DNA of 62,837 bases, counting the filler, from Candidatus Tectimicrobiota bacterium (GTDB lineage: Bacteria > JACPSX01): NCBI GenBank assembly GCA_016193065.1. It is 6 parts of 6 records of this genome, joined end to end, with 100 filler letters (N's around TTAATTAATTAA, not from the genome) between each part and the next. Parts side by side here need not be neighbours in the genome. Positions count along the whole stretch, not along the records: positions 21,167 to 32,063 come from JACPSX010000239.1; 5 more parts are not named here. One strand, given 5' to 3'. A program made the position numbers and the translations under genes. Positions 16,829 through 51,043 of this stretch are shown piece after piece. The notes under the pieces are model-generated. The model did no database searches and had not been told where the DNA came from. It saw nothing but the letters and a program-made list of their open reading frames with translations. Every line of letters starts with the position of its first letter. Position 1 is the stretch's first letter.

Positions 16829-18151
16829 TTAGAAGTTGTAACCGCTCTCCTCATGCTGAGAGAGATCGAGTCCCATCAGCTCTTCCTCTTCCGAGGTTCG
16901 GACTCCAAAAAGGGCATGAACGATTTTGTATAGAACGTAGGTGCCAACCGCGGCATACACATAGGTCGCCAACACTCCGAGAAATTGGATCCCGAACTGA
17001 GCCGCATTACCGAAAAAGAGACCGTCGGCCCCGGCAGAGTTCACTGCTTTTTGCGCCAGCAGCCCTGTCGCGAGGGCACCCCAGGTGCCGCCCACTCCGT
17101 GGACGCTGAAGACATCCAGCGAATCATCGAGCCGTGTACGTGCCCGCACGATGACCGCCACACCGCACAGAATCCCCGCTACCAGACCAATGATGATGGA
17201 GCCCACGGGGCTCACAAACCCCGCCGCCGGCGTGATGGCCACCAATCCCGCCACCGCACCGCTGGCTGCGCCCAGCACCGTGGGCTTTCCCCGCCCGATC
17301 CAATCGACCAGAACCCAGCCGATGACCGCAGCCGCCGTTGCCGTGTTCGTGTTCACGAACGCGGTAGTCGCCAGAGCCCCCGAGCCCAGCGCGCTGCCCG
17401 CATTGAAACCGAACCAGCCAAACCAGAGAAGGGAAGCCCCCAATACCGTCAAGGGCAGACTGTGGGGGGGCATGGGCTCCTGCTTATAGCCCTTGCGGGG
17501 CCCCATGAGCAGAGCCGTTACAAAACCCGCCACCCCGGCGTTGATGTGAACGACGGTTCCGCCGGCAAAATCCAGAGCCCCCAGCTTACGGAGCCAGCCA
17601 TCGATCCCCCAGACCCAGTGGGCGATCGGATCGTAGACCAAGGTCGCCCACAGGAGCGAGAACAGGACGAAAGGCCCGAAGCGGATGCGCTCGGCAAACG
17701 CCCCGGTAATCAGGGCCGGGGTGATGACGGCAAACATCCCCTGGTAAATCATGAACAGTTGGTGGGGAATTGTGGCGGCATAGTCCGGGTAGGGCTCAAG
17801 GCCCACCCCGCCCAGACCGAACCAGGACAGGCTGCCGATGATTCCCCCTTGGTCGGGCCCAAAGGCAAGAGAATATCCCCACAGGACCCACTGCACGCTG
17901 ATCAAGGCCACCATGATGAAGCTGTGCATGATGGTCCCCATCACATTTTTCCGCCGCACCATGCCCGCATAGAAAAACGCCAAGCCCGGAGTCATGAGCA
18001 TCACCAGAGCAGTTGAAACAAGCATCCACGCCGTGTCACCCGGATCAATTTTGGGGACTGGGACCGGCTGCTGGGCGAAGGCCGGAAACGCCATGGGGCC
18101 CAGCACGATTCCCGCCGCCACTCCTGCCAACAACCATCTGCGCATTCCCAT
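16829..18151 (-). CDS. amtB: Ammonium transporter
   Basis: DTAWMLVSTALVMLMTPGLAFFYAG, DFAGGTVVH, WFGWFGFNAGS, DDSLDVFSVHG; start reassigned to MGMRR behind GGAGGAG. Confidence 0.96.
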   Translation of the reverse strand: MGMRRWLLAGVAAGIVLGPMAFPAFAQQPVPVPKIDPGDTAWMLVSTALVMLMTPGLAFFYAGMVRRKNVMGTIMHSFIMVALISVQWVLWGYSLAFGPDQGGIIGSLSWFGLGGVGLEPYPDYAATIPHQLFMIYQGMFAVITPALITGAFAERIRFGPFVLFSLLWATLVYDPIAHWVWGIDGWLRKLGALDFAGGTVVHINAGVAGFVTALLMGPRKGYKQEPMPPHSLPLTVLGASLLWFGWFGFNAGSALGSGALATTAFVNTNTATAAAVIGWVLVDWIGRGKPTVLGAASGAVAGLVAITPAAGFVSPVGSIIIGLVAGILCGVAVIVRARTRLDDSLDVFSVHGVGGTWGALATGLLAQKAVNSAGADGLFFGNAAQFGIQFLGVLATYVYAAVGTYVLYKIVHALFGVRTSEEEELMGLDLSQHEESGYNF

Positions 18152-18272
18152 ACCCGATTCTCCTCCCAGATCGATTTCTCCAAAAGAAATGCATTTTCTG
18201 TATTGGGTCCCTAGGATTTGCAGACCCCAAGCCCTTCGATGCCGAGCCTTTCCTGGCATGCTTTGGGCGGGG

Positions 18273-18288
18273 TGCAAAATCTTTGCCT
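18273..18288 (-). promoter_or_regulatory. Sigma54 (-24/-12) promoter for amtB
   Basis: AGGCAAAGATTTTGCA = GG-N10-GC; fits nitrogen regulation. Confidence 0.6.
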
Positions 18289-18510
18289 TTCCCGCCCCCG
18301 GGAGAGATCCTTGCTTTTCAGGAGCTTTCACAGAACCCTTGGATGGACTGGAGAGCCAGATGGCTAATATTTAGGCAAATCAAGACTGCGCGTGCGCAAA
18401 AAACAGACAGCTTTCCGGAAAGAGCAGAGAGGGGAAGATTTCCCTGGAATTTGATCCACAAATCCACTCGGGGTATACTCATGTGCGCGAGGGAACCCGA
18501 GTGCAATGAG

Positions 18511-19965
18511 ATGAACCGACGCATCCAGGCCGGCCAATTTTACGACTACGAACGCTGTAAGCACAGGGTCTACCTCGACGTCCATGGAGACTCCAACGAG
18601 AAAGGCGGCGAGTCCGCTTTCCTGCGGCTTCTCTGGGAGCGCGGCATCCAGCACGAAGCCCGGGTGATCTCCAGGCTCTCTTCGCAACGGCAGATTGCCC
18701 CCATAGATGCCTCCTCTGAGAAAGAAGCATTTGCCCAAACCCTTGATTGGATGGTCCGCGGGGCAGACCTCATCTACCAGGGGGTCCTGCTGACGGAGGG
18801 GGGGATTGGGCGTCCCGACCTCCTCGAAAAAGCCGCAGGTCCATCCAAATGGGGGGACTACCATTACGTTCCCATTGACATCAAGTCAGGAGGGGGATTT
18901 GAAAATCCTCAGACCCGAGAGCGGGTCAAGAAAGAATACGCGCACCAGGTGATCTTCTATCTGGACCTCCTGGAGGAAATCCAGGGCTACCGCCCGCTGG
19001 TGGGCAAGGTCATCAACATCGAGGGAGAGGAAATTGTCTTCCCGGCCTCCGCTTACGAGGAGACCTACTCCGCCAGCCGGAAGGACATTGAAGAGATCGT
19101 GGGCGGCGGGAAGTCCTACGAGCCGGTCCTGGGAGGCAAGTGCAAGCTCTGCCCCTGGCTCCAACACTGCAGCACCTGGATCAAGGAGCACGACGACCTG
19201 AGCCAGATCTACTGGCTTGGAGAAGGGAAGTACGACTTCCACGCGCGCGGGATCCGCACCGTGGAGGACATGCGGCGGATCCATATCGCAAATTTCATGC
19301 GCCCTGAAAACCGCATCCCGCGGGTCGCAGAGAAAACCCTCGCCGCTTACAAGAGGAGAGCTCGGGTTCTCAAGGAGGGCAAGCCCCTGTTTCACGGCCC
19401 CATCACGTTTCCCAGCCGCTCCCTGGAAATCTTCTTCGACATCGAGGACGACCCGACCCAGGGCATCGTCTACCTCTACGGACTTTGGGAGCGCCCCCGG
19501 GGAGAGATCCCGCGCTTCCGTTACTTTCTGGCCGAAAAACCTCAAGACCAGCAGGCGGCCTTTGCAGCTCTCATGGAATACCTGTCCCGCCTCGATGACT
19601 TCGTCATCTACCACTACGGCCCTCACGAACTCACGACGCTCAAGAAGCTCGGCCAGACCTCGGGCAACCACAAACCGGTTCTGGAAAAATTCCATCGCTC
19701 CGCCGTGGACATCTTCCGGGTCATCGAGAAGCACACGGACTGGCCCCTTTTCTCCTACGGCCTGAAGGACATTGCCAAGTTCCTGGGCTTCCGCTGGAGC
19801 GTTGAGGACGCCTCGGGAGCCGCCAACTCTATCGCCTGGTACGCGGAATATCTCAAGGATCCTCAGAAGAACCGCGACTTCCTGGAGCGCATCGTGCAAT
19901 ACAACCGCGAGGATTGCGAATCCCTGGCCCTGGTCCGGGACCGGCTCGCCGGCGGGATCCAGTAA
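18511..19965 (+). CDS. TM0106-family RecB-like nuclease with C-terminal RNase H-like domain
   Basis: GRPDLL...IDIK PD-(D/E)xK motif, CKLCPWLQHC, FFDIED, SYGLKDIA, YNREDC. Confidence 0.85.
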   Translation: MNRRIQAGQFYDYERCKHRVYLDVHGDSNEKGGESAFLRLLWERGIQHEARVISRLSSQRQIAPIDASSEKEAFAQTLDWMVRGADLIYQGVLLTEGGIGRPDLLEKAAGPSKWGDYHYVPIDIKSGGGFENPQTRERVKKEYAHQVIFYLDLLEEIQGYRPLVGKVINIEGEEIVFPASAYEETYSASRKDIEEIVGGGKSYEPVLGGKCKLCPWLQHCSTWIKEHDDLSQIYWLGEGKYDFHARGIRTVEDMRRIHIANFMRPENRIPRVAEKTLAAYKRRARVLKEGKPLFHGPITFPSRSLEIFFDIEDDPTQGIVYLYGLWERPRGEIPRFRYFLAEKPQDQQAAFAALMEYLSRLDDFVIYHYGPHELTTLKKLGQTSGNHKPVLEKFHRSAVDIFRVIEKHTDWPLFSYGLKDIAKFLGFRWSVEDASGAANSIAWYAEYLKDPQKNRDFLERIVQYNREDCESLALVRDRLAGGIQ

Positions 19966-20061: not shown

Positions 20062-20406
20062 TTATTTCCCCTGCAGGTAGTCGCCGAGCTGGAAGCGGGT
20101 GTGCTCGTCCTCGTGGCAGTAGATGCAGAGGTTTTCCCAGTTGCTGCCGTCGGGGGGATTGTTCAGGTGGTTCCCGTCTTTGTGGTGGACCGTGAGCAGG
20201 TGGAGGTTTGAGGCATCAAACTCCCGGCCGCACTTGGCACAGATCCAGCCGTGAATGGCCAGGGAGCGCTCCCGGTAGTCTTCCTTTCTGGCCGCCTTGG
20301 CCTTGAGCTCCGCGATGAACTTTTCCATCTCCTCTTCGTTCATCTTCAACGGCGAAGCAAAAGAGCGGCCTCCTCGCTTCTTCGGGACAAATCTCCTGCC
20401 TGCCAT
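20062..20406 (-). CDS. yajD: YajD-family HNH nuclease
   Basis: YRERSL, CAKCGREF, LTVHHKDGNHLNNPPDGSNWENLCIYCHEDEH. Confidence 0.85.
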   Translation of the reverse strand: MAGRRFVPKKRGGRSFASPLKMNEEEMEKFIAELKAKAARKEDYRERSLAIHGWICAKCGREFDASNLHLLTVHHKDGNHLNNPPDGSNWENLCIYCHEDEHTRFQLGDYLQGK

Positions 20407-20491
20407 CTCTTTCAAGCCTCCACCGGGAAAAAGCGTTTTCATTAAATCACAGGCCTCAGAGAGGATCAAGAGGCGTGGAGCGGAAGCGATC

Positions 20492-21467: not shown

Positions 21468-21626
21468 ACGGTTCTGTAGACCGGAACACAACGGCGCTTG
21501 GTTCGGCCTCGGGTGCTAATCCCATTCGCAAGCCCTCCGCCGTTCGCCCTCACCCGGAAACCGGGTACCCGGTCGAAGGGTGAACGGAGGGTTATTCAGC
21601 GGCCAGGTGCTGAGATCGGGGGAAAG

Positions 21627-23174
21627 ATGGAACTCGGATTTCGCTTGGAGCGGGAGAGCTTTCAGCCCCTCTACGTGCAGATCAAGGAGCACCTGCACCG
21701 CCTGATCGAGAAGCGGCTGTTGCTTCCCGGTGTGAAGCTTCCTCCCAGCCGCGACCTGGCCCAGCAGCTTCAGGTGACGCGGAGCACGATCAACAGCGCC
21801 TACAGTGCTCTGCTGAGCGAGGGGCTGGTCGTGAGCGAGGTAGGCCGAGGCACATTCGTCTCCGGCAAGGTGGCTGCGCCTGCCTCGGGGGCCGAAGCCG
21901 GCCAGGGGCCGGAGCCCGATCTGCCCGGCGTCGTGGATTGGGACCAGCAATTTTCCCGGCGCGGACTTTTACCTGAGCCCTCCTTCTGGCCGGGCGTGGA
22001 ACCCTTCCTACTGCGGCCGCAGACCATCTCTTTCATCGGCGGGGTTCCGGACAGCGCACTCTTTCCCATCGATCTCTTCCGCAAGGTTCTCAACGCCGCC
22101 CTCAAGAAAGAAGGGAAGGCGCTCCTCCAGTATGGCAACGTGAGCGGCTACCCGCCGCTCAAGCGCTACCTGAGCACCTACCTGCTGGGCCTGGGGATCG
22201 AGGCTCCCGAGCGCTCCATCCTCATCGTGAACGGCTCCCAGCAGGGCCTGGATCTGCTGGCCCGCGTCCTCCTGGATCCCGGCGACGCCGTCGTGGTCGA
22301 GAACCCTTCCTATCCGGGCGCCCTGGACGTCTTCCGCTCCAACCGGGCGGAGCTGCTGCCGGTCCCCATGGGGGAAGACGGTCTGAGCCGCGAGGCTCTG
22401 GGCCGGATCCTGCAGCGCCAGCGCCCCAAGCTCATCTACACGATCCCCACGTTCCACAACCCGACCGGAATCACGCTCAGCGCCGAGGGGCGCCGGGAAC
22501 TGCTCGCCCTGGCCGCCAGACACCAGGTTCCCATCGTGGAGGACGATTACGACGGGGAGCTGCGCTACGAAGGCCCGCGCCTGCTGTCCCTGAAAGGGCT
22601 GGACCCGGCAGACCTGGTCATCTACACGGGCACCTTCTCCAAGATCCTGTTCCCGGGCCTGCGGCTGGGCTGGATCGTGGGGCCGGAGCCGGTGATGGAG
22701 CGGCTGCGGGCGGCCAAGCAGATCTCCGACCTGCAGACCAGCCCCGTGCTGCAGGCCGCTCTCTACCACTTCTGCCAGAAGGGATTGCTCACCAAGCACA
22801 TGGAGCACATCCGCAAGGAATACCGCGGGCGCCGCGATCTCCTGCTGGAGAGCTTGCAGAAGCACATGCCGGCGGGGGTGTCCTGGACCCGGCCCGTAGG
22901 AGGGCTCTCCCTCATGGTGCGGCTGCCGGACCCACTGAACAGCCTGGACCTGCTGCCCCGGGCGGCCGAGGAAGGGGTCGTGTTTCTGCCCGGACCCGTC
23001 TTCTTTGCCGCCGGAGGAGGGGAGCGGGAGCTGCGCTTGAGTTTTTCCGCCGTGCCGGCAGGCCGGATCGAAGAAGGAGTGCGCAGGCTCGCGCGGGTCG
23101 TGCGCCGGATGATTGCGGATCAGAAGAACAAACCACCCAGGCCGAGGTTGCGCGAACGCGCCCCGGTGCTCTAG
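21627..23174 (+). CDS. MocR/GabR-family regulator (GntR HTH plus PLP aminotransferase domain), probable PdxR
   Basis: PLYVQI, KLPPSRDLA, GRGTFV; NGSQQGL, HNPTG, EDDYD, GTFSKILFPGLRLGW; upstream of pdxST. Confidence 0.9.
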   Translation: MELGFRLERESFQPLYVQIKEHLHRLIEKRLLLPGVKLPPSRDLAQQLQVTRSTINSAYSALLSEGLVVSEVGRGTFVSGKVAAPASGAEAGQGPEPDLPGVVDWDQQFSRRGLLPEPSFWPGVEPFLLRPQTISFIGGVPDSALFPIDLFRKVLNAALKKEGKALLQYGNVSGYPPLKRYLSTYLLGLGIEAPERSILIVNGSQQGLDLLARVLLDPGDAVVVENPSYPGALDVFRSNRAELLPVPMGEDGLSREALGRILQRQRPKLIYTIPTFHNPTGITLSAEGRRELLALAARHQVPIVEDDYDGELRYEGPRLLSLKGLDPADLVIYTGTFSKILFPGLRLGWIVGPEPVMERLRAAKQISDLQTSPVLQAALYHFCQKGLLTKHMEHIRKEYRGRRDLLLESLQKHMPAGVSWTRPVGGLSLMVRLPDPLNSLDLLPRAAEEGVVFLPGPVFFAAGGGERELRLSFSAVPAGRIEEGVRRLARVVRRMIADQKNKPPRPRLRERAPVL

Positions 23175-23293
23175 CTTTTGTACCCTCTCCCTCGTTTTTA
23201 AATTATCTCCTCCTCCTTGATGGGGGAGGATGAAGGTGGGGGAGAAGTAGACCTGGGGGTGAGAAGGAAGCAGGCATGAACGTGGGTAATGGA

Positions 23294-23323
23294 CCGTTCG
23301 TGGTGAGCCTGTCGAACCACGAA
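23294..23323. repeat. REP-like element family B
   Basis: CCGTTCGTGGTGAGCCTGTCGAACCACGAA; related copies at about 55192-55245, 57232-57264 and 57295-57327. Confidence 0.75.
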
Positions 23324-23377
23324 AAAGAATTTTCCAGCTCTTTCGGTTAGACAGGTTATTGCAACAAGGAGGGACTC

Positions 23378-24176
23378 ATGGAAACAGGGACTCTGAAACT
23401 AAAAACGGGCCTGGCGGAAATGCTCAAGGGCGGCGTCATCATGGACGTCACCAACGCGGATCAGGCCCGCATCGCCGCAGACGCGGGGGCCGTGTCCGTC
23501 ATGGCTCTGGAGCGAGTGCCTGCGGACATCCGGGCTGAGGGCGGCGTGGCCCGCATGGCCAGCCTGCGCAAGATCAAGGAGATCATGAAGTGCGTCACGA
23601 TCCCGGTCATGGCCAAGGTGCGCATCGGCCACTTTGTGGAGGCCCAGATCCTCCAGGCCATGGGCGTGGACTACATCGACGAGAGCGAGGTGCTCACCCC
23701 GGCTGACGAGCATTTCCACGTGGACAAGTTCGCCTTTGCCGTGCCCTTTGTCTGCGGCTGCCGCAACCTGGGCGAGGCCCTGCGCCGCATCGGCGAGGGG
23801 GCGGCGGCGCCTGACGGCCATGCGCCCCGACGAGCTGATGCGGGAAGCCAAGGAGATGGGGGCGCCCTACGATCTCGTTTGCCTCGTGGCCCAGACCGGC
23901 AAGCTCCCGGTGCCGAACTTCGCGGCGGGCGGCATCGCCACACCCGCCGATGCGGCCCTCATGATGCAGCTTGGGGCGGAGTCCGTGTTCGTGGGCTCGG
24001 GGATCTTCAAGTCCGAGGACCCGCCCGCCCGGGCCCGGGCCATCGTGGAAGCCACGACCCACTACAACGATCCCGATATTCTGGCCCGAGTGACCGAGGA
24101 ACTGGGAGAGGCCATGCCCGGCCTCGACATCGCCACACTGGACCGCGGCGCGCTCCTTCAGCAGCGCGGCATGTGA
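23378..24176 (+). pseudogene. pdxS: PLP synthase lyase subunit with internal deletion and frameshift at about 23805
   Basis: [13 protein letters not shown]...[12 protein letters not shown] in one frame and [12 protein letters not shown]...[20 protein letters not shown] in another; MIRTKG segment absent. Confidence 0.88.
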
Positions 24177-24302
24177 GCAAATGTCACTTCCTCCCCGATA
24201 CGCGAGGATCAAACCAGTTATCTCCTCATCGATGGGGGAGGATCATCCCAATAATCTCCTCCCCCTTGAAGGGGGAGGATGAAGGTGGGGGTGAAAAGAA
24301 GC

Positions 24303-24893
24303 ATGAAACTCATCGGCGTCCTCGCACTGCAGGGCGACTTTGCCGCTCACCAGCGCGCCCTGGATCGCCTGGGCGTCGCCTCCCGGCAGGTGCGAAACCT
24401 TCGGGATCTGGAGGGGATCAGCGGCCTCATCCTGCCCGGCGGCGAGAGCACGACCCTCTTGAAGCTCCTGGATTCCTCGGGCCTGAAGGAAGCCATCGTG
24501 GACTTCCACCGCCAGGGGCATCCTCTCTTCGGCACCTGCGCGGGGCTCATCCTTCTCTCCCGGCAGGTCCTCAACCCGGAGCAGCCTTCCCTGGGCCTCA
24601 TCGACGTCACCACCATGCGCAACGCCTACGGGCGCCAGAAGGAGAGCTTCGAGACCACCGGAGAAGCCAACTTCGGAGAAGATCCTTCTCTTCCCATGGT
24701 CTTCATCCGCGCTCCCCGCATCGTCCGCCTAGGTGAGAGTGTCACACCGCTTGCCTCCTACCAGGGGGAATGCGTGATGGCCGGCCAGGACAAGGTTTTG
24801 GTCGCTACCTTCCACCCCGAGATGACGGACGACACCCGTGTCCACCGCTACTTCCTGGACATGACCTCCAACGGGAGCCTATCCAGCTCCTGA
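24303..24893 (+). CDS. pdxT: PLP synthase glutaminase subunit
   Basis: [36 protein letters not shown]. Confidence 0.95.
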
Positions 24894-25191
24894 TTTTCCC
24901 ATCTTGACTGAGGCCACTCACTCGACCTAGACTCTCTTCATCGTCTCAATCATTGCAGTTCTTCCCGAGACCTGGGAGGAGGATTCATGGGCGAGGACCC
25001 CGTTGCCAGACGCTCTGAGAGCCGCCTGGCTTTAGTCCGCTGTCGCGGACTTGGAAGAAAGGGTTCTCTTTACACGTTGTTGGAACTGTTATAAAAGTGC
25101 TACCAGGGCTAGGCAGTTATTACCTGAGCTATTCAGAAATCAGAGGGAATTATGCCGAAGAACATCCTCAGGAGTTAGGCTCCCGAATACG

Positions 25192-25893
25192 ATGACATCT
25201 ACGAGTGACATTCAGGCGCTGTTCGAGGAAGTTCGGAAGCGGTGTGGCGTGATTCAAGCGTGCTTGCCCAAACGAAATGACCCGGTCTCGATATCTCTTA
25301 AAGCAAAGATTCCGTTTAAGGCCCTTGAATACAGGGAGGCCTTGATCTGGAGAGCGAGCGAACTAGCCAGTACTGCTTGCCGGCTACTGGAGGAGGGCGA
25401 GTTAGCGGCCGGAACCTTACTGGTGCGGGGGCTGATGGAGACCAGCGCAGCATTGTGGTTCCTTAACCGAAAGATCAAGGATGTTGTGGACGGCCACAGG
25501 GTCGGATCCATAGATGAGGATCTAATGCGCCTCTTGATGGGCAGTCGAACGGACCTTACCACCTACGAGTCATTCAACGTCCTGACTCTTGTGGACAAGA
25601 TAGCCCAAGAAATCCCTAGCTTCCGCCGCGAGTACGAGGCGTTGAGTCAAATTGCCCACCCAAACTGGTGTGGAACGATGATGCTCTATTCCAGACCAAA
25701 TACAGAGAAGATCTGGACGGATTTCGGAAAGCACGTGCGGGACAATGAGTCGGTGGTAAAAGTGGGCCTAATTAATTTGAATGCCGGGCTCCAGATATTC
25801 GAGTATGCCTATAACCAAATTGTGGATCTGATGCCCAGATTCATAGAAATCTGCGAAAAAGCTCTCGATGACTCAGTTGAAAGCGCGCGCTAA
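25192..25893 (+). CDS. Hypothetical helical protein (DUF5677-like)
   Basis: LVRGLMET and YEALSQIAHPN patterns; atypical codon usage; GTTAGGC just upstream. Confidence 0.6.
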   Translation: MTSTSDIQALFEEVRKRCGVIQACLPKRNDPVSISLKAKIPFKALEYREALIWRASELASTACRLLEEGELAAGTLLVRGLMETSAALWFLNRKIKDVVDGHRVGSIDEDLMRLLMGSRTDLTTYESFNVLTLVDKIAQEIPSFRREYEALSQIAHPNWCGTMMLYSRPNTEKIWTDFGKHVRDNESVVKVGLINLNAGLQIFEYAYNQIVDLMPRFIEICEKALDDSVESAR

Positions 25894-26027
25894 CTCGCTC
25901 GGGTCCTGGCGTGAAGATCGATTCCGCAATAGTAGAGGTGCCGTTTGGTTTAGAATCACGTTTGGGGGCTCCTCTTCTCCGTAGTGTGGGCAAACACGAG
26001 CATACCAGGCGGCATGCTTGCCAAGGG

Positions 26028-26107
26028 GCCTCAATGAGTATCAGCTTGCTGCAGGTGACGGAGGCCGAGCAATCGATGGGCTGCAGCGGCTGAGTACCAA
26101 GTTAGAC
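26028..26107 (+). other. attC-like imperfect palindrome
   Basis: GTATCAGCTTGCTGCAG pairs with CTGCAGCGGCTGAGTAC with bulges; ends in GTTAGAC (GTTRRRY); left core site is degenerate. Confidence 0.45.
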
Positions 26108-26150
26108 AGACACAGCGTTGATGGTGACACTCGAGAGGATCGCAAACGCG

Positions 26151-27653
26151 ATGACTCAGCCGAGAGTATTCATTAGCTACAGTCACAAGGACAAGCTGGT
26201 TGCCAAATACCTCGCCGCCCATCTACAGGAACGCGGAGCGGAGGTATGGGTTGATGAAGGCGAGATCTTGGTCGGGGATTCATTGCTTGCCAAAATAGCT
26301 CAAGGTGTCCAGCGGGCCAGCTTCGTTATAGCCATTATCTCCCGGAACTCGATCGGTTCTCGGTGGGTAAGGAAGGAGCTTGCTATCGCGATGCACAAAG
26401 AGGTCTCCGGTAGGAGAGTAGTTGTGCTTCCAGTAAGGGTCGATGACTCCGGGCCGCCCAATTTCCTGAAGGACAAGCTCTACTGCGACCTCTCAGCAGA
26501 CGCCATCGACTGGAATGCAGAGTTGTCACGCCTCTTCCGGTCGCTTGGGCTCACCTCAGGCGCTCATGGAACTCTCGCGGAGAACACACCGCTCCCACTC
26601 TCGTTGACAATCCCGGCGGTCTTCAGCCAGCACAGAATCCTAGAGAGTAACTGCTGGGGGTTCGGTCACTTTGTGGCCGACGACGTCTGGACTGGTGGCA
26701 TCTATATCCCTGTTCGTCAACGGGCCTTAGGGCGTGTTCTGGCGGAGACACCCGCTCCCCTGAGTCGAAGCGTCCCCCGCCGCATCAAAGCCCCACCTAC
26801 CAGCAGGGTTCTGACTCTCTCGGCTGTCTCGGAATACAAGCCAGGCGCAGCCCTTCGGATTAGAGGACTGGCTACATGCGACACGTTTGCCCGTCGGAGA
26901 GGCTTCTGCGCAGTCTGCTACGGCGGTGATCCAATGACTGGTGCGTTTGTCCGCCGCGCCACTCAGGTTGGCCGCTCCGCCGCCACCTCTATTTTGACGG
27001 CTCTGGAGCGCGCTCAAGACATCTCGGCTGTCACCCGGCTTTTCGAGGCCGGGCCGGCTCCAGGTCGTATGGTCCTCTCTCCGGCGGACGGTGTGGTTAG
27101 ACTCGAGCGCACCGCGACCGGCACCCTGCGCATAGCCGTAACTGACGATTCTGGTGAGTGTTTTAATGTCGTGACCAAGGATGATCCGACCGTACCCGAA
27201 GGCGACCGCGTGTGGCTCGGGCAGGCCTTGACTCAGGGCGACCCCTCACCGCATGACTTGTTGCAGATGTTTGGCAATAAGTTCGTTGAACGCCATCTGG
27301 TTACAGAACTAGCTGCAGCCTTCATGCGCCAGGGGATCCGAATCCCCGAGCGCGACCTGGAGCTCCTCGTCGCGGTCATGACTTCCTACGTTAAGGTCGA
27401 GGGCGGCAATGAGCAAGACGCGTTGGTCCGACGGCATAAGGGAAAGGCACTTCCGAGGCGTAAGTTCTTCTCCACAAATAATCGTTTGTTGAGGCTAGGT
27501 CGGGAACCAATTCTCGCGAGGCCCCTGGTTCTGGGCGTAAGTGAGATCTTTCACCTGGAGCGTGCACTGGTCGCTGACTTAGCACGCAATCAGCGTAGGT
27601 GGCGTCTAATCCCTACGAGGTCCCCGGTTGTCAAGGGCAGAAAACTTACGTGA
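26151..27653 (+). CDS. TIR domain fused to a degenerate RNA polymerase beta-prime (RpoC) C-terminal fragment
   Basis: VFISYSHKDK...SRWVRKEL...VLPVRVDD (TIR); LGRVLAE, CDT..GFCAVCYGGD, TRLFEA, EGDRV..GQALTQG..SPHDLL, QGIRI..RDLELLV, LVLGVS match RpoC segments in order. Confidence 0.88.
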   Translation: MTQPRVFISYSHKDKLVAKYLAAHLQERGAEVWVDEGEILVGDSLLAKIAQGVQRASFVIAIISRNSIGSRWVRKELAIAMHKEVSGRRVVVLPVRVDDSGPPNFLKDKLYCDLSADAIDWNAELSRLFRSLGLTSGAHGTLAENTPLPLSLTIPAVFSQHRILESNCWGFGHFVADDVWTGGIYIPVRQRALGRVLAETPAPLSRSVPRRIKAPPTSRVLTLSAVSEYKPGAALRIRGLATCDTFARRRGFCAVCYGGDPMTGAFVRRATQVGRSAATSILTALERAQDISAVTRLFEAGPAPGRMVLSPADGVVRLERTATGTLRIAVTDDSGECFNVVTKDDPTVPEGDRVWLGQALTQGDPSPHDLLQMFGNKFVERHLVTELAAAFMRQGIRIPERDLELLVAVMTSYVKVEGGNEQDALVRRHKGKALPRRKFFSTNNRLLRLGREPILARPLVLGVSEIFHLERALVADLARNQRRWRLIPTRSPVVKGRKLT

Positions 27654-28618: not shown

Positions 28619-28665
28619 TTGACATGTTGTTGAAGGCCCCTTAATATACGTATTGAGCACGTATA
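28619..28665 (+). promoter_or_regulatory. TA operon promoter with palindromic operator
   Basis: TTGACA-17 nt-TAATAT overlapping TATACGT-N7-ACGTATA. Confidence 0.7.
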
Positions 28666-28685
28666 CAAGAGAAGGGACCCGCATA

Positions 28686-28916
28686 ATGCAAAAAAAGCTA
28701 ACCATCACCGTCAATGAGAAAGTGTATGAGGGCCTGCACAAAGTTGTGGGCCGCCGTCGCATTAGCCGGTTTATCGAAGAGTTGGTCCGTCCATACGTCC
28801 TGAACCGGGAGCTTGAAGCCGCCTATCAGCAGATGGCCAAGGACGAGGCACGCGAAGCAGAGGCTTTGGAATGGTCAGAGGCCACGGTTCGAGATGTCGG
28901 CGATGAAACGCGGTGA
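28686..28916 (+). CDS. Type II antitoxin (RHH-like)
   Basis: MQKKLTITV...[11 protein letters not shown]...[19 protein letters not shown]; overlaps the toxin. Confidence 0.8.
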
Positions 28917-29244
28917 GGTGTGGTGGGTGAACTTCGAAGCGGCTGTTGGTGGCGAGATTCGCAAGAAACGACCAGCAGTTATTATCAGCAACGATGCCTC
29001 AAACAAATATCTGAATCGTATTCAGGTTATACCACTGACGAGTAATGTTGATCGACTCTATCCAAGTGAAGCGCCTGTCACGCTGAAAGGCAAGCGGAGC
29101 AAAGCTATGGCGGATCAACTCACGACGGTCAGCAAAGCACGATTGATAAACCGAGTGGGGAGGCTGTCTGAGATAGATATGCAGCGGGTGGAGCGTGCTG
29201 TGCGCATGCAACTTGGCCTGTCCGGCCTCATGGAAGAAATCTAA
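28903..29244 (+). CDS. PemK/MazF-family toxin
   Basis: [41 protein letters not shown]. Confidence 0.92.
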
Positions 29245-30355: not shown

Positions 30356-30949
30356 GTGCTCAGCAGGTAGGTCCCGACTATTCCATGTTGGTGACCTCCC
30401 CGGTCAGTCTTCATGCATCCTCCGGGCCGACATGCCGTACCCAATCCTTGCAGGCAAAGGTTGGGACGGGGAAGAACACCCCCATCCTGACCTTCCCCAC
30501 ACGCCCAGAGGGTACCCGGGGGGAAGGAATTGAAGTGGATGCAAAGGTACATGATCCTGGCACGCCGAGCGATCCCGCAGTACCATAAGGGCTGTCTGGT
30601 TTCGAATCTCATGTGCGGAAGGACGACAAGGGCGGCCTATTTTGCTGCAGCCGGTGTGACGGTGGTGCCGCATGACGAGGCGCTGAGCTGGACGGCGCCC
30701 CAGCGGTCAGTTCCCTGGGCGAAATAGTATTGAAACAAACATATCTTAGCTACAGACTGCTCTTCCGGCCTTGACTCCGGGTTTTCTTTTGATCTACAGT
30801 AGTTGTGCTCTTAACTCCCGATGAAAATCGCCCACCGGAATTGGTCTGCTCCAGGAACCATCTGTTGTACTCTGGCGGTGCAGAGGTGGGAAGGGGTAGG
30901 GGGGGACGGAACAGGGGGGAAACCCGATCAGGCGAAAGGAGGCAGAAAA

Positions 30950-32063
30950 ATGATGAAGAAATGGATCGCGTTGCTGAGCCTCATGGTGCTGGCGGTGGTT
31001 GCGTCACCCGGCGGAGCCCAAGCGCAGGAGACTGTAAAGTTCGGATTTCTGGCGTCGTTGAGCGGGCCCTTCACGATCTGGGGGGTGCAGGTGCGGGACG
31101 GAATGAAGATGGCCGTGGACGAGTTGAACGAAAGGGGCGGCGTGCTCGGAAAGAAGGTTCAGCTGGTGGAGCGCGACGACAAAAACAACCCGAATGAGGG
31201 GATCACGGCGTTCCGGTACCTGGTCGAGCAGGAACGCGTCAGCGGCAGGGGGAATGATTTCGAGCGACGTGGGCCTGGCCGTCTCCCGGGAGGCGGAGTC
31301 CCTGAAGGTCCCTCACTTCCTGACCATGTCGGGCTCCCATGAAATCCTCAAGAAGAACAGCCGGTACACGTTCCGGACGTGTCTGCCGGCGGCGCCGGAG
31401 AACATGGAGGCCGTCGCCGCCCTGATCAAAGACAAGAAATACACCCGGGTCGGCGCCATCATCGCCGACTATGCCTGGGGGCATTCCCTCCGGGAAGCTC
31501 TCGAAAAGCACATCAAGCCCATGGCGGGCGTCAAGCTGCAGATCGAGGTGGCTCCGGTTCCCGAGAAGGACTTCACTCCCTACCTGAGAAAGCTCCAGGC
31601 TTTCGATCCACAGCTCATCGTTGCCACGGGTCACCCCCCGGGAAATCCCACGATCACCCGGCAGGCGATCGAGCTGGGGATGAAGGCCCAGGTCATCGGA
31701 TCCTGGTACCCCACGGAGTTCATGGTGCAAAGGGTGGGAGAGCTGATGTTTGGACGCTTCGTGGATTATTCCTGCGTCGACCTTGAAAGCCCGGCGTACA
31801 GGCAACTGGCGGAAAAGTTCCATGCGATCTACAAGCGCCTGTTCGACAACAACGCCTTCTCCGGCTACGTGATGGTCAAGATGGTGGCGGACGCGGCCCA
31901 GAAGGCCAAGTCCACCGACCCGAAGGTCGTGGCGGATGCCATCCGGAAGGGAAAGTTCACGCAGCCGGGCTACGGCTGGCCGCTCTCGTACACGGAGTGG
32001 GGGGAGATGAAGGAGGCCAGGCCGATCCTGTACACTTACGAGAAGGGAAACCCCGGGCCGATC
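30950..32063 (+). pseudogene. Liv-type ABC substrate-binding protein, frameshifted at about 31245 and cut by contig end
   Basis: Signal peptide and VKFGFLASLSGP...GGVLGKKVQLVERDD in one frame; GGMISSDV...YTFRT...DYAWG continues in another. Confidence 0.8.
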
Positions 32064-32163
32064 NNNNNNNNNNNNNNNNNNNNNNNNNNNNNNNNNNNNN
32101 NNNNNNNTTAATTAATTAANNNNNNNNNNNNNNNNNNNNNNNNNNNNNNNNNNNNNNNNNNNN
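32064..32163. other. Artificial contig spacer
   Basis: N-TTAATTAATTAA-N. Confidence 0.99.
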
Positions 32164-32559: not shown

Positions 32560-32679
32560 ATACTCCGCCAGGATCTGGAGGGAGCTATCCCCGTTTCCCT
32601 GACACGTTCTTAGGGTGTAGTGGGCGCCAGAGGACGGGGAGAGAATACACAATCATTACCCACGGAAGGAGGCCGCACC

Positions 32680-33918
32680 ATGCGTTCGTTCATCGCGACA
32701 GCGCTACGCTCGGGGATCCGGTCGGCGGTTTTCACCCTGTTCGTCGCCGGATTGATTCTGGTCAGCGGTGTGGCGGTTGCCCAAGAGGCCAAGCCGTTTA
32801 AGATCGGAGTTCTGGCGCCGCTGACGGGCCCGCAGACTCAACTCGGCCAGAACCTCGTCGCCGGGGTTCGCTTTTTCTTCCAGCAGCGCCCTGCTATCGC
32901 CGGGCGTTCGGTCCAGCTTGTGGTGGAGGACACCGTTTCCCAGCCGGGACAAGGATTATCCAAGGCCCGAAAGCTCCTGGATCTCGATCGGGTGGACATC
33001 GTGATGGGAATTGTAAACAGTGCCGTCCTGGACGCGGTGCAGGGCATGATCCTGGGACGGCGTGTGCCGCTCATCGTGACGAACGCCGGCTCCGACGGCT
33101 TTACGAAGGGCAGCGTGAACCGCTATGCCTTCCGCGTCTCCCACACCAACTCCCAGAACAACCTCGCGTTAGGGTGGTACGCCTACGAAAAGCTCGGGTA
33201 CCGGAGGGCCGCCGTCCTCACCTATGACTTCATCGCGGGGGTCGAGCACGCGGGCGGCTTCAAGAAGACCTTCACGGAGATGGGCGGCACCATCACGCAG
33301 GAAGTGAAGGCGCCCCTGGGCACGAGTGATTTCGGCCCTTATATTTCTCAGATCCGAACGGGTGAGATCGATGTCCTCTACGTCTTCCTGGCCGGGGCCG
33401 ACGCGATCCGCTTCATGCAACAGGCGGACAGCTTCGGGTTGAAGAATCGCACCAAGATCATCGGACCCGGTTTTGTTGCCGATGATCTGATCCTGGCGGC
33501 CCAACGGGATGCCGCGGTGGGTGTGGTGACGGCGATCCAGTATGTGAACACCATCGATACTCCGGAGAACCGGGAGTTCACCGCTGCCTATCGCAAGGCC
33601 ACCGGCCAGGAGGCAAACCTCTACGCGGAAGATGCCTATACCGCGTGCGAAGCCGTGGCGAAAGCTCTGGAAGAAGTCCGCGGGGATACAAGTGACATAT
33701 CCCGCTTCGTGAACGCCCTCGAAAGCGTCAAGTTCACCTCACCGCGCGGGCCGTTCCGCTTCGATAAGAATCACCAGGCTGTCTTCACGGTCTACGTCGC
33801 GCGGGTCACGAAGATCGGGACTCAATACCGGAACACGATCATCGACCAGATTCCGGATGTGGGTCAGGACTGGTCGCCTGCCTCTCGCCCGCAACCCTCC
33901 CGTCCACAGGGTCGATAG
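32680..33918 (+). CDS. Liv-type ABC substrate-binding protein (possibly for aromatic acids)
   Basis: Signal peptide, KIGVLAPLTGP, DFGPYISQI, SPRGPFRFD. Confidence 0.88.
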   Translation: MRSFIATALRSGIRSAVFTLFVAGLILVSGVAVAQEAKPFKIGVLAPLTGPQTQLGQNLVAGVRFFFQQRPAIAGRSVQLVVEDTVSQPGQGLSKARKLLDLDRVDIVMGIVNSAVLDAVQGMILGRRVPLIVTNAGSDGFTKGSVNRYAFRVSHTNSQNNLALGWYAYEKLGYRRAAVLTYDFIAGVEHAGGFKKTFTEMGGTITQEVKAPLGTSDFGPYISQIRTGEIDVLYVFLAGADAIRFMQQADSFGLKNRTKIIGPGFVADDLILAAQRDAAVGVVTAIQYVNTIDTPENREFTAAYRKATGQEANLYAEDAYTACEAVAKALEEVRGDTSDISRFVNALESVKFTSPRGPFRFDKNHQAVFTVYVARVTKIGTQYRNTIIDQIPDVGQDWSPASRPQPSRPQGR

Positions 33919-46554: not shown

Positions 46555-46620
46555 TAGTAGCAGATCTGGTTGGTTTTTTGGGCAGCCCGTTTAACCGTTG
46601 AGGATGGAGGAAGGAAACGA

Positions 46621-47730
46621 ATGAGACAGAAACGTTGGCTTATGGGCTTTCTTACTTTGGCTTTGGTTTTGGCATGGAGCCTGGACTCCTGGGCACAGCC
46701 CCGCGGCGGCCAGCGGGGGGAGAAGAGTCCGGGTCAGGGAATGATGGGCCCGGGAGGAGGCATGATGGGGCAGGGCGGAATGGGAGGGATGATGGGCTCT
46801 CCCGGCGGCGAGATGATGGGCCCGGAGGGTGCCGGGAGGACATTGGGTCCGGAATCTCCCTGGATCTCGATCATCCTCAGGTTCCGCAATGAGTTGCAAC
46901 TGACCAAAGAGCAGGTTTCTTCCCTGGAAAAACTCCGCTTTGAGTTTGAGCGCCAGGCGACCAAGCTGCAGGCCGATCTCCGTCTTGCGGAGTTAGATCT
47001 AAACCAGCTTCTTTCTCAAGAGACTGTGAGTCTCCCTCAGGCCAAGACCAAAATTGAGGAAGAGGCGAGGATCAGCGCGGAGCTGCGCTACCGGCGATTG
47101 GAAGCCATCACCCAGGGTCGCAGCGCACTCACTGCGGAACAGAGAGACAAGTTACAGTCTCTGGTGAGCCGGAGCCCGCAAGCTCCGGGAGGGCGCAGCC
47201 CGCAAGGAGCGCCGCCCAGCAAAGGAATGCCCCGGAAGGGGTCTGGTGGAATGATGGGTCCCGGAGGCGGGGGGATGATGGGCCCGGGAAGCATGCTGGG
47301 CCCCGGGAATGATGCGATCTCCAGCGCAGGGGAGATTCGGAAAGTTGCGGCTACATCGACCTCTTTGGCACAGGTAGATCAGCGAGATTCCGTAACCGTG
47401 GAGGTGACCCCGGTCACTCCACCGGTCCAGGGGAAGATCAAGTTCAAGGTGGTCCTGGATACCCACTCGGTGTCCCTGGATGACTACAAGCTGGAGACGC
47501 TTGCGACCTTGCGGTCTGGTGGCGGCGAGGCGGTCAAAGCCCTGGCCTTGGAATCAGGGGAGGGGAGTGGGCATCATCGCTCGGGCGTCCTGGTCTTCCC
47601 CGACAAGGATTCCAAGGGCAAATCTCTACTGAATTCGGCCAACAAGAGTCTAGAGCTTCTGATCAAGAACGTGGGCGGGAATTCCACTCGAATCTTCCGC
47701 TGGAACTTGCCTCTTCCAAAATCCTCCTGA
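46621..47730 (+). CDS. Periplasmic Spy/CpxP/ZraP-like protein with Gly/Met-rich tracts and His-containing C-terminal domain
   Basis: Signal peptide, GMMGPG repeats, LQLTKEQ and LTAEQR (LTxxQ) motifs, DTHSV, GHHRSG. Confidence 0.8.
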   Translation: MRQKRWLMGFLTLALVLAWSLDSWAQPRGGQRGEKSPGQGMMGPGGGMMGQGGMGGMMGSPGGEMMGPEGAGRTLGPESPWISIILRFRNELQLTKEQVSSLEKLRFEFERQATKLQADLRLAELDLNQLLSQETVSLPQAKTKIEEEARISAELRYRRLEAITQGRSALTAEQRDKLQSLVSRSPQAPGGRSPQGAPPSKGMPRKGSGGMMGPGGGGMMGPGSMLGPGNDAISSAGEIRKVAATSTSLAQVDQRDSVTVEVTPVTPPVQGKIKFKVVLDTHSVSLDDYKLETLATLRSGGGEAVKALALESGEGSGHHRSGVLVFPDKDSKGKSLLNSANKSLELLIKNVGGNSTRIFRWNLPLPKSS

Positions 47731-48705: not shown

Positions 48706-50943
48706 GTGTTGCCCTCTGAGCACGCACAACCCTCGATCCGCTCCCAGGCTCTTCGTTTTCCCCTCTACCTCCTCTGCGTGTTCGTGATTGGCCTGAGCGT
48801 CCTGTCCTACGAGATCATTCTGACCCGATTCTTCTCAGCTCTGTTTTCCTATCATTTCGTGTTTGTCGCTGTGTCCCTGGCTGTTCTTGGTTTGGGCTTG
48901 GGAGGACTGCTCGCCGCCAGGCTCCCAAAGCCGCGGGGAGCTGCACCCCTTGTGTACGGAGTCCTGCAGGGGAGAGCCGCTTTCTTCCTGGGTCTTTCAC
49001 TGGTTGTTGTACTTGTTTTGTTTGCCTATTTTCCCTGGATGCGACGTGTGTGGTTTTTGAGCCTGATCGCTCTGCCGCCATTTGGCGCAGCCGGGTATTC
49101 TCTCGCTCTGACAATGCGGTTATTCTCCAGCGAGAGTTCCCGAGTCTACTGGGCTGATCTCAGCGGCGGGGCACTGGGCACTCTCCTCGTTGTGGTTGGG
49201 CTCCAAAAGTGGGGGCCCGTGGTTACCCTCCTCCTTCTCGTTGCTCTGATCACTCTGATTTCAGGGTTGTGCTTTCTCCAGGCGCGCTCCTGGAAGTGGT
49301 TAGGTGCAGTCGCAAGCCTTTTCTTAGCCCTCCTTCCTTTGTGGGAATTGAGCACTCCTGGCGGACCAGTTGATTTGCGCCTGAACCGCAGGCAGGGATC
49401 AGGAAATCAACTGAGCCGGCTGTTTCAAAATCCCGCGCCGGGGACGACTCTGGTCTCAAGTGAATGGAACGCTTTCGCCCGCACGGACGTGGTTGAGATC
49501 TGGGAGGATGGAAGGCGGGCTCGATTCCTGTTCACGGACGGCGGCGGCGCCTCCCGGATTCCGCAATTTCCCCGTGACTTGCTGGAGCGTTCCTGGGTTG
49601 AGGAAGATCCGGGGTTGTTCCCCTTTCTCGCTGCTGCTCCCAGGAAAGTTCTGGTGATCGGAGCGGGCGGCGGGCGGGACGTCCTTCTTTCCCTCCGGGG
49701 CGGAGCTGAAGAGATTACGGCGGTGGACGTGAACCCGGAAGCCCTAAGGGCCGTGAGACGCTACGCGGGGGATCTGGCCCGGCTCAAGAACGTACGCTGG
49801 GTTGTAGATGAAGGGAGAGGATTTTTGCAGCGCAGCAAGGAACGCTACGATCTCATCTATCTGCCCCTGGTCTACACCGACCGCCCCGAGGCCATCAGCT
49901 ACTCTCTGGTGGAAAATTACATCTTTACCCGCGAGGCGTTCCGGGAGTATCTCAACCATCTCACGGAGCGAGGACTGCTGGTCATCCGGGCCCACGATTT
50001 CAACGACTTTACCCGGGCTGCGCTGACCGCTCTGGAAGCCCTGGAGGGCCGGAGCGGAAATGATTCCAGAGCCATGCGCCACCTGATCGGCGTGCACCGC
50101 AGTGAAGGGTTCCTCCTGGACCCCCAGGCGATGAGCTACCCACTGTTGCTCGTTCGCAATACTCCCTATCAACCCCAGGAGTCCTCCCGCATCCTTAAGA
50201 TTGCACTTGGGGCCGGGCTGTATCCAATTTTCATCCCGGAGCTCGTGGCCCGGTCCCCGTTTTCGGCTCTTGCCGCCGGCGGGGAAACCCCGCAGCAATT
50301 CAGCCGTCGCTTTCCTCAGAACCTCTCTCCCACTTGGGATGATCGGCCGTTCTTCTATCAAACGAATCGATTCCCGCCCCGGCCGTTGCTGCTTTTGCTG
50401 CTGTTCGTTTCCGCTGTCTTGCTGGCCTTGCTCTTTGTCTACCTGCGGCGAGGAGAAGATTTTCCCGTTCGGCGCCCTCTAAAAGCGGCGGCTCTCTATT
50501 TCTCCGCCCTGGGGGTAGGATACATGTTGATTGAAGTGGCTCTCCTGCAGCGCTTCATCCAGATCCTCGGGTTTCCCACTCTGACGTTTTCCGTCCTCCT
50601 GTTTGTCCTTCTCCTTTCAGGAGGGGTGGGGAGCTGGTGCAGCCGCTTGATCCCCGTCGAGCGCGGCACCCGGTTTATCTTGGTTCTGGGTTTTCTCCTT
50701 CTCGTTGCGAGTTTCCTTTTTTTCCGGACTTTGCCTTCTCTGGTTTCCTGGGCTGCCTCCCAGGAGCTCTGGGCGCGATCTCTGGTGTCCATGGGGGTTC
50801 TTTTTCCGCTGGGCTTTGTCCTGGGGATCCCTTTCCCCCTTGGGGTCCGTCTCCTGGAGGATCGAGGTCTGGCGTCGGAGATCCCCTGGATGTGGGGGCT
50901 CAACGGGGTCGCTTCGGTGCTGGGATCGGTGGCGGCTGTGGCG
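48706..50943 (+). CDS. Membrane protein with spermidine-synthase-like SAM-binding domain (3'-truncated)
   Basis: YEIILTRFFS, YWADLSG, VLVIGAGGGRD, DEGRGFL, ENYIFTREAF, TWDDRPFF, WGLNG. Confidence 0.85.
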
Positions 50944-51043
50944 NNNNNNNNNNNNNNNNNNNNNNNNNNNNNNNNNNNNNNNNNNNNTTAATTAATTAAN
51001 NNNNNNNNNNNNNNNNNNNNNNNNNNNNNNNNNNNNNNNNNNN
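50944..51043. other. Artificial contig spacer
   Basis: N-TTAATTAATTAA-N. Confidence 0.99.

Follow-up and report, generated by a model that had tools for sequence, protein, structure and literature searches.

What might a protein do that joins a TIR domain to a piece of the β′ subunit (RpoC) of RNA polymerase (RNAP)? The question is raised by a gene in a 62,837-nucleotide stretch of DNA, hereafter the window, from a Candidatus Tectimicrobiota bacterium (assembly GCA_016193065.1). An earlier reading, made without database searches (the sequence-only reading), had described an open reading frame (ORF) at 26151–27653 and proposed that its product, here called P0001, carries the RpoC piece as a bait for phage proteins. 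Translation bore out the ORF, and our in silico analysis established the architecture of P0001, the family to which it belongs, its pattern of kept and lost residues, and its fold. The reading that we favour is that P0001 is a TIR conflict effector whose sensor is a β′-derived bait, which we regard as plausible and put forward tentatively.

P0001 joins a TIR domain to a β′-like module

P0001 comprises 500 amino acids (aa), arranged as follows (positions count along the window; + is the strand shown). Confidence in the AlphaFold2 (AF2) model is given as the predicted local distance difference test (pLDDT).

26151–27653, +: whole ORF, 500 aa, TIR plus β′-like module (translation, ATG at 26151 to stop at 27651–27653)
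26166–26534, +: TIR domain, aa 6–128 (Pfam TIR_2, E = 1.9e-29)
26376–26378, +: putative catalytic Glu, E76 (alignment to solved bacterial TIRs)
26535–26591, +: linker, aa 129–147 (low confidence in AF2, pLDDT 63–67 in the blocks of 131–150 and <50 at 138–141)
26592–27548, +: β′-like module, aa 148–466 (phmmer, family profile, hmmalign, structural superposition)
26652–26918, +: Zn-II cysteine codons, C168 at 26652–26654, C243 at 26877–26879, C253 at 26907–26909 and C256 at 26916–26918 (hmmalign)
26961–27053, +: remnant of the trigger-loop region, aa 271–301 (phmmer gap; hmmalign, first trigger-helix motif replaced and tip deleted)
27054–27245, +: jaw-equivalent segment, aa 302–365, corresponding to E. 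coli 1149–1215 (family profile, hmmalign, segment identities)
27549–27650, +: C-terminal helix 463–484, then a disordered tail; family-specific (AF2, pLDDT <50 at 486–500)

The segment of aa 302–365 is presumably the one named sandwich-barrel. The frame is open from a TTG at 26118, an alternative start; a further alternative start, ATG at 26121, fits a 510-aa public version of the protein (P0185). No sigma-70-like promoter was seen directly upstream of the gene. No single model in PADLOC, Pfam or NCBIfam covers both halves of P0001; in PADLOC and NCBIfam, defence-type TIR models match the TIR half and rpoC models match the remainder.

The module is derived from β′ and lacks catalysis-linked elements

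In a phmmer search against the PDB, all of the 60 best chains listed were β′. The best of these (Streptomyces 8k60_D, E = 3.2e-22) aligned query residues 235–466 with chain residues 954–1196, and the alignment was gapped exactly at the tip of the β′ trigger loop. A profile of seven family sequences matched β′ chains with E = 5.8e-70, the match beginning in the final turns of the bridge helix and ending at the LLGIT motif; Pfam RNA_pol_Rpb1_5 gave a sub-threshold match at aa 356–418. These statistics place the homology to β′ far beyond chance. P0001 is nevertheless no full-length RpoC with a catalytic N-terminal half, since it begins with a TIR domain instead; the NCBIfam model for RpoC, TIGR02386, reached 74.4 bits against a cut-off of 963.5 and matched at model positions 846–1090 only.

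The family was aligned by hmmalign with E. coli K-12 RpoC and 45 true β′ sequences. Here, aa 150–292 of P0001 correspond to E. coli RpoC ~796–934 and aa 299–466 to ~1146–1317; over all searches, the homologous region (aa ~148–466) is equivalent to E. coli ~793–934 plus ~1146–1317. The module covers the end of the bridge helix, the Zn-II region, the jaw, and region G up to LLGIT, a unit that we take to be the shelf plus jaw; it includes neither region H nor the N-terminal half, where the active site lies. The cysteines C168, C243, C253 and C256 are equivalent to C814, C888, C895 and C898 of E. coli, which form the Zn-II site. Among the family rows that cover these columns, the first is kept in six of six and the other three in seven of seven. 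Further equivalences are R191, G194 and R195 with R838, G841 and R842; G274, A277 and A278 with G916, A919 and A920; E299 with E1146; V348...G363 with V1198...G1213; E404 with E1254; and G462 with G1308.

Conservation in the 45 true β′ sequences reaches at least 85% in 66 columns, of which the family keeps 31. These include the Zn cysteines, R838/G841/R842, R883, Y899/G900, G916/A919/A920 and E1146, the glycines and hydrophobic residues that form the skeleton of the jaw barrel, and G1245, E1254, M1260, G1270 and G1308. The bridge-helix-end residues T797, R798 and D802 are lost, and the first trigger-helix motif (E. coli 921–934, 14 columns at least 85% conserved) matches the consensus in at most two of eight family rows. 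Between the equivalents of E. coli 934 and 1146, P0001 has 6 residues and the TIR-fused members 6–7, compared with 22–24 in β′ sequences that lack SI3 and 211 in E. coli, so P0001 has no RpoC trigger loop; the stand-alone forms of the module fill the same interval with unrelated stretches of 33 and 40 residues. In every segment the module is ~20–30% identical to β′ sequences, which are 31–81% identical among themselves, and the largest drop in identity falls at the trigger helix (0.23 versus 0.81 among β′ sequences). This pattern indicates that the fold-determining residues and the Zn site have been kept and that the elements linked to catalysis have been lost.

The sequence-only reading had arrived at much of this: hmmalign reproduced all of its segment pairings with E. 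coli RpoC, and its four retained Zn-II cysteines, its missing N-terminal half and its replacement of the trigger loop by a short linker were borne out. Its label of a catalytically dead polymerase is too strong, the module being a shelf and jaw fragment that never held the active site.

Four longer proteins found in the course of the analysis (P0042, P0113, P0106 and P0145; 773–1389 aa) are β′-like and have a degenerate or deleted trigger loop. P0042 has all Rpb1 domains 1–5 and only 6 residues at the loop tip, and P0106, from a metagenome-assembled genome (MAG) of Chloroflexota, is annotated as hypothetical. They are possibly inactive or specialised β′ paralogues.

The retained β′ core fold and Zn site would also suit a guard that docks onto RNAP, in which the module binds host RNAP subunits or assembly intermediates, perhaps taking the position of the native shelf while the enzyme is assembled, and the TIR domain reports damage, modification or hijacking of the polymerase. 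The boundaries of the module match a natural unit of β′, presumably comparable to the archaeal A'' subunit, which fits such docking. Against this, β′ is made as one chain, so that a second shelf or jaw would find no free place in the assembled enzyme; the module lacks region H and the part of the C-terminal clamp by which the unit is tied into RNAP; and identity to β′ sequences is low throughout. We consider a docking guard distinctly unlikely.

The predicted fold is that of β′

A first AF2 model, made with 7 sequences, had a pLDDT of 62.9, and Foldseek with this model returned β′ chains first (E = 3.7e-13). With 60 sequences (the family and β′ fragments), the pLDDT rose to 86.4, with a predicted template modelling score (pTM) of 0.80 and values mostly >90 within the module. 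Superposition on β′ in RNAP structures by VIA-align gave Z scores of 29.9–31.9 and a root-mean-square deviation (r.m.s.d.) of ~3.2 Å over 311–328 aligned residues. Two of these superpositions were:

8i23_D: Z 31.4, r.m.s.d. 3.2 Å, 325 residues, model 148–500 to chain 797–1168
4ljz_D (E. coli): Z 29.9, 311 residues, model 148–474 to chain 794–1317

As modelled, the module superposes on β′ as one rigid unit, and the match to RpoC that the sequence-only reading had expected from AlphaFold and Foldseek was thus found (Z ~31 for the predicted structure). The likeness of the model signifies compatibility with the fold and is not an independent proof; the claim of homology is carried by the sequence statistics. 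A co-fold of whole P0001 as a homodimer scored 0.01, a value that counts neither for nor against self-association.

The fusion is not an assembly artefact

A chimeric assembly could bring together two unrelated gene pieces, and the sequence-only reading had named this as a condition that would undo it. Contigs from sequencing runs X2 (25365–27500), X3 (25299–26652) and X4 (26248–27009) cross the junction between the TIR domain and the fragment (~26535–26600) without differences. The runs X1–X4 belong to a single groundwater study, and the window itself may derive from X1 and X2. Because separate contigs bridge the junction and the architecture recurs in homologues from unrelated samples, P0001 is not an assembly chimera.

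That P0001 is a non-functional relic or an artefact might be suspected from its surroundings, where pdxS and a livJ-like gene look frameshifted. However, its frame of 500 codons is intact, the junction is bridged by contigs of X1, X2, X3 and X4, and the architecture is found in three other clusters at 27–37% identity over the fragment, with the Zn ligands and the Glu kept. This explanation is hardly credible.

The module defines a rare and divergent family

When aa 140–500 were compared with 1.84 billion cluster representatives, 1368 proteins matched at E ≤ 1e-3, but only five of these at E ≤ 1e-30. The family drawn from these matches is as follows.

P0035: 493 aa, TIR plus fragment, full length (E = 1.9e-50)
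P0038: 483 aa, TIR plus fragment, full length
P0050: 492 aa, TIR plus fragment, full length; near-copy P0184
P0036 and P0037: partial ORFs
P0040: 370 aa, fragment alone
P0063: 389 aa, fragment alone

The search for proteins combining TIR with an Rpb1_5-type region, which had been suggested as a check, thereby yielded three further clusters and two fragment proteins that lack a TIR. Pfam detected TIR_2 in P0035, P0038 and P0050 (E = 1e-23 to 4e-29) and no TIR in P0040 and P0063. The fragments of the three fused members are 27–37% identical to that of P0001. Scores by a hidden Markov model (HMM) of the fragment were bimodal, with members at 288–451 bits and true β′ sequences at no more than 249 bits; P0063 reached 226 bits, yet its alignment is unbroken and shows no trigger loop. 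Each member is a metagenomic cluster of 1–2 sequences among ~15 billion.

In a quick maximum-likelihood tree (59 rows, 307 columns), P0001 grouped with P0035 and P0038 (support 92) and P0040 with P0063 (support 88), and P0050 was placed among the β′ sequences with weak support. Forcing the six forms into one clade improved the log-likelihood by 23.9 units over the unconstrained quick search (approximately unbiased test, p-AU 0.82). A single ancient capture is therefore not rejected and corresponds to the better of the trees obtained, an outcome to which long-branch attraction could contribute. The end branches of the family are 1.1–2.4 long, against a median of 0.71. Retention of the same architecture, Zn cysteines and core residues despite deep divergence points to selection, and the patchy, rare distribution and the long end branches fit an accessory, fast-evolving conflict gene.

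Other searches added no member. A word-index protein search with whole P0001 gave 34 proteins at E 1e-3, namely the query itself, one true rpoC fragment (P0028) and 32 matches to the TIR alone; the C-terminal family profile in the same kind of search gave four proteins, none of them a new member. A scan of genome contigs, which used TIR patterns only, kept 80 loci, all matching just the TIR part. Of three loci from metagenome contigs, the two that were read (L081 and L083) were ordinary rpoC, and the single locus from viral contigs was judged a spurious, off-frame match in high-GC DNA, with nothing found when the scan was repeated. The module retrieved only generic Rpb1_5 clusters from the Protein Atlas (0.81–0.84, below the useful range). 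With tblastn, it matched 62 plasmid records, all at <60% identity (23–29% in the rows listed), the annotated ones being rpoC.

Two by-products of these searches deserve mention. The locus L003 (9091–14193, from a Melainabacteria MAG), which looked like a longer match, proved to hold two adjacent TIR genes instead. They are flanked on one side by what seems to be a restriction-type gene and on the other by a seeming Dam-type methylase gene and its partner; judged by eye from the translations, the stretch looks like a defence island. P0039, a β′ fragment of 258 aa, contains the jaw and region-G stretch twice in tandem, which may reflect misassembly or a genuine duplication.

The phage searches bear on a variant of the bait idea, in which the target is a phage multisubunit RNAP made as separate chains and the module pairs with a phage β or N-terminal β′ chain that awaits its C-terminal β′ partner. 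Among 50,697 phage records, tblastn with the module found 12, nothing closer than rpoC at 23–29% identity, and those with annotation were labelled rpoC or β′. The module is, moreover, clearly of the bacterial β′ type, and we hold this variant to be very improbable.

The rarity of the family is also relevant to a role at transcription outside defence. TIR proteins with NAD-RNA decapping activity have been reported (PMC10937652, in the portion of the text available), and the TIR domain of P0001 could by analogy remove nicotinamide from NAD-capped RNA, or the protein could be a regulator tethered near RNAP. Extreme rarity and patchiness fit a housekeeping function poorly, however, and those parts of RNAP that contact the 5′ end of the RNA are missing from the fragment. 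We give such a role very little credence.

The TIR half resembles NAD-cleaving enzymes

The sequence-only reading had placed an N-terminal TIR domain with a putative catalytic Glu at 26376, and both assignments stood. P0001 matched TIR_2 (PF13676) with 103.1 bits against a Pfam cut-off of 28. Its closest solved TIRs were 7uxr (E = 1.6e-12), 7uwg, PdTIR (3h16), AbTIR (8g83), TcpB and the CRISPR-associated Cat1, with matches spanning aa 4–120 at E = 1.6e-12 to 4e-8. E76 lies opposite the conserved Glu (W-x-x-x-E motif) of 7uxr, 7uwg and 3h16 and is kept in all four TIR-bearing family members. The TIR domain of P0001 is thus a probable NADase, as judged from these alignments. The top TIR models in PADLOC and NCBIfam were those of defence TIRs, namely PDC-S66, SAVED-TIR, Aga_TIR, ThsB and retron-TIR.

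The match to ThsB raises the alternative that the same sensor logic is coupled to signalling. The TIR domain, instead of depleting NAD+ itself, would then produce a nucleotide signal that acts on an effector from another locus. Weak matches of this type recur, with Pfam ThsB_TIR at a borderline 21.8 bits against a cut-off of 21.2, the ThsB models of PADLOC, and ThcB4 of NCBIfam. Against it, the closest solved TIRs are enzymes of the AbTIR/PdTIR type, and the neighbours scanned include no ThsA-like, SLOG, Macro or SIR2 gene. P0001 does not belong to Thoeris as far as a ThsA-like partner defines it, no such match being found in the eight neighbours by PADLOC or in the Pfam and NCBIfam scans. ThsB-like signalling is in our view unlikely.

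A proposed β′ bait as the sensor of infection

On the reading that we favour, P0001 would be a single-chain conflict protein, most likely of the anti-phage, abortive-infection type. In the proposed mechanism, the sensor would be an autonomously folding, Zn-binding copy of the β′ shelf and jaw, stripped of catalytic parts, and the output would be the N-terminal TIR enzyme of the bacterial NAD-cleaving type. The module would display the RNAP surface that lines the downstream-DNA channel and the jaw, and a phage protein that has evolved to grip this part of host RNAP would bind the copy too. Bound molecules would cluster, their TIR domains would assemble, and NAD+ would be cleaved, leading to its depletion or to a signal. 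The defence role, the bait mechanism and the activation by oligomerisation are what we infer from the architecture.

A bait is favoured over the other sensors because the module forms the jaw and the downstream channel, which are a landing site of at least one phage inhibitor: T7 Gp2 binds the β′ jaw. It is favoured also because bacterial immunity is known to fire on phage inhibitors that bind a stand-in, and on interference with RNAP. PARIS, Ronin and PrrC are set off by a phage inhibitor that binds a guard or look-alike, and there are bacterial systems that respond when phages interfere with the RNAP of the host (PMC12409349, in the sections available). A paper considered as a source on Gp2 (PMC13434337) concerns, in its accessible part, Gp2.5 instead.

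P0001 also shows one of two features of an integrated decoy, a sensor that shares ancestry with a host protein and lacks that protein's usual activity; the second would be direct binding of a pathogen effector aimed at the imitated protein. More specifically, it may be a prokaryotic integrated-decoy receptor, with a TIR executioner and a mimic of the RNAP β′ shelf and jaw that senses polymerase-hijacking phage proteins and no structure of the phage, P0040 and P0063 being free decoys or sponges. We regard this fuller version as possible and rather doubtful.

Several observations weigh against a bait. No binding partner is known or predicted for the module. With ~20–30% identity and long branches, it is not a close surface mimic of any β′ with which it was compared, and a faithful decoy might be expected to track the jaw of its own host. 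The existence of the stand-alone P0040 and P0063 implies that the module also works without a fused TIR, which fits a decoy and other roles equally well. The likeness of the AF2 model to β′ is partly built in, because β′ homologues were in the alignment. Finally, the context in the window is only mildly defence-like, and PADLOC gave no system-level match in the eight neighbours, with HNH-domain matches only.

The same surface could alternatively sense nucleic acid. The corresponding part of β′ lies along the downstream DNA channel of RNAP, and the module might bind duplex DNA, or phage proteins that mimic DNA, and trigger the TIR domain in this way. Only half of the channel is present in P0001, however. 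DNA mimics such as Ocr do trigger other systems (PMC12409349, in the sections available). A sensor of DNA or its mimics seems to us quite improbable.

Genomic neighbourhood and host

The gene for P0001 lies in an insert-like stretch of ~6 kb with conflict-type genes, between pdxT and the liv genes. The surrounding features are:

16829–18331, upstream: AmtB
18013–19965, upstream: TM0106-type RecB-like nuclease, 650 aa, with a weak Cas4-like match
20062–20469, upstream, opposite strand to the adjoining TM0106-type nuclease: small HNH protein
21498–24893, upstream: PdxR, PdxS and PdxT
25051–25893, +: DUF5677/DUF6988-like upstream neighbour, likely start M47 at 25189 (Pfam DUF5677, E = 2.6e-4, below cut-off)
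28653–29244, +: toxin–antitoxin pair, MazE-like (weak) and MazF-like (PemK_toxin, E = 1.1e-27; NCBIfam MazF, E = 6.8e-11)
from 30821, downstream: Liv-type binding-protein genes

The DUF5677-like neighbour matched Atlas clusters of 227–232 aa at 0.96–0.97, one of which is automatically named 'HEPN domain-containing'; by these matches it is possibly a gene of the abortive-infection or HEPN type. The antitoxin of the MazEF-like pair had RHH/VapB matches at E = 0.02–0.03 only. No convincing att-like repeats border the region of 24.5–31.5 kb. The nuclease and HNH pair, ~6 kb upstream of the P0001 gene, adds to the genes of mobile or conflict type in the window.

Two of the flanking genes appear split. 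In pdxS (23378–24176), SOR_SNZ positions 2–139 fall in the frame of ORF 23378–24736 and positions 167–207 in ORF 23634–24176, which reflects either a pseudogene or an assembly indel. A LivJ-type gene (30821–32111) lies in two overlapping frames, with Peripla_BP_6 positions 1–71 in ORF 30821–31342 and 68–316 in ORF 31194–32111; an intact LivJ-type paralogue then follows at 32620–33918. Elsewhere in the window, the ORFs at 48706–50991 (761 aa), 1846–3420 (524 aa) and 46570–47730 (386 aa) have no Pfam family at E 1e-5.

The host belongs to a deep, uncultured groundwater lineage. ArgH of the window shares 91% identity with one MAG protein; its other matches, from Desulfobacterota, Nitrospirota and similar groups, are at ~60%.

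Novelty and comparison with known systems

The sequence-only reading knew of no described system with this architecture, and we found none either in PADLOC, Pfam and NCBIfam; searches of full-text literature, with supplements and subscription journals outside their scope, brought up no description of a TIR–RpoC fusion or of a β′-derived decoy. A TIR effector with a variable sensor is a known kind of protein, and what is new is a sensor derived from a β′ fragment. P0001 could conceivably be the first case in which core transcription machinery has given rise to an integrated decoy, though we would call that doubtful. Should the bait reading be right, a copied part of the bacterium's own basal transcription apparatus would serve to detect infection, following the integrated-decoy logic of plants, and the module could serve as a pull-down handle for finding unknown phage inhibitors of RNAP. 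Regardless of the bait, the β′ shelf–jaw unit can fold and persist as an independent protein over long evolutionary time, which is of interest for the evolution and engineering of RNAP.

Compared with RpoC, the module of P0001 is homologous and superposable over E. coli ~794–1317 and retains the four cysteines of Zn-II. RpoC has ~1400 residues, whereas P0001 carries ~320 of them, with the trigger loop removed.

With AbTIR, PdTIR, TcpB and Cat1 (8g83, 3h16, 4lqc and 9mud), P0001 shares the TIR_2 fold and an aligned Glu. Unlike these, it pairs the TIR with a β′-derived domain, a pairing absent from the 34 proteins matched and from the PADLOC, Pfam and NCBIfam scans. TIR-SAVED, TIR-NLR, SPARTA TIR-APAZ, retron-TIR and ThsB follow a similar logic of a TIR with a variable sensor. 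Models of systems of these types in PADLOC and NCBIfam match only the TIR part of P0001, and PADLOC found none of their partner genes among the eight neighbours. Unlike theirs, the sensor of P0001 comes from the enzyme at the core of the cell's own transcription.

The integrated decoys of plant NLRs are alike in joining a signalling domain of immune type to the inert likeness of a host protein that pathogens target. P0001 differs in being prokaryotic and without an NB-ARC/STAND switch, and its binding of effectors is only proposed. PARIS, Ronin, PrrC and Panoptes, as the available sections of PMC12409349 describe them, resemble the proposed mechanism in that immunity fires on a countermeasure binding a stand-in, and not on a structural part of the phage. 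They have different effectors, and they imitate or guard components of defence, such as restriction–modification systems and signalling nucleotides, whereas the stand-in carried by P0001 would be drawn from the transcription machinery.

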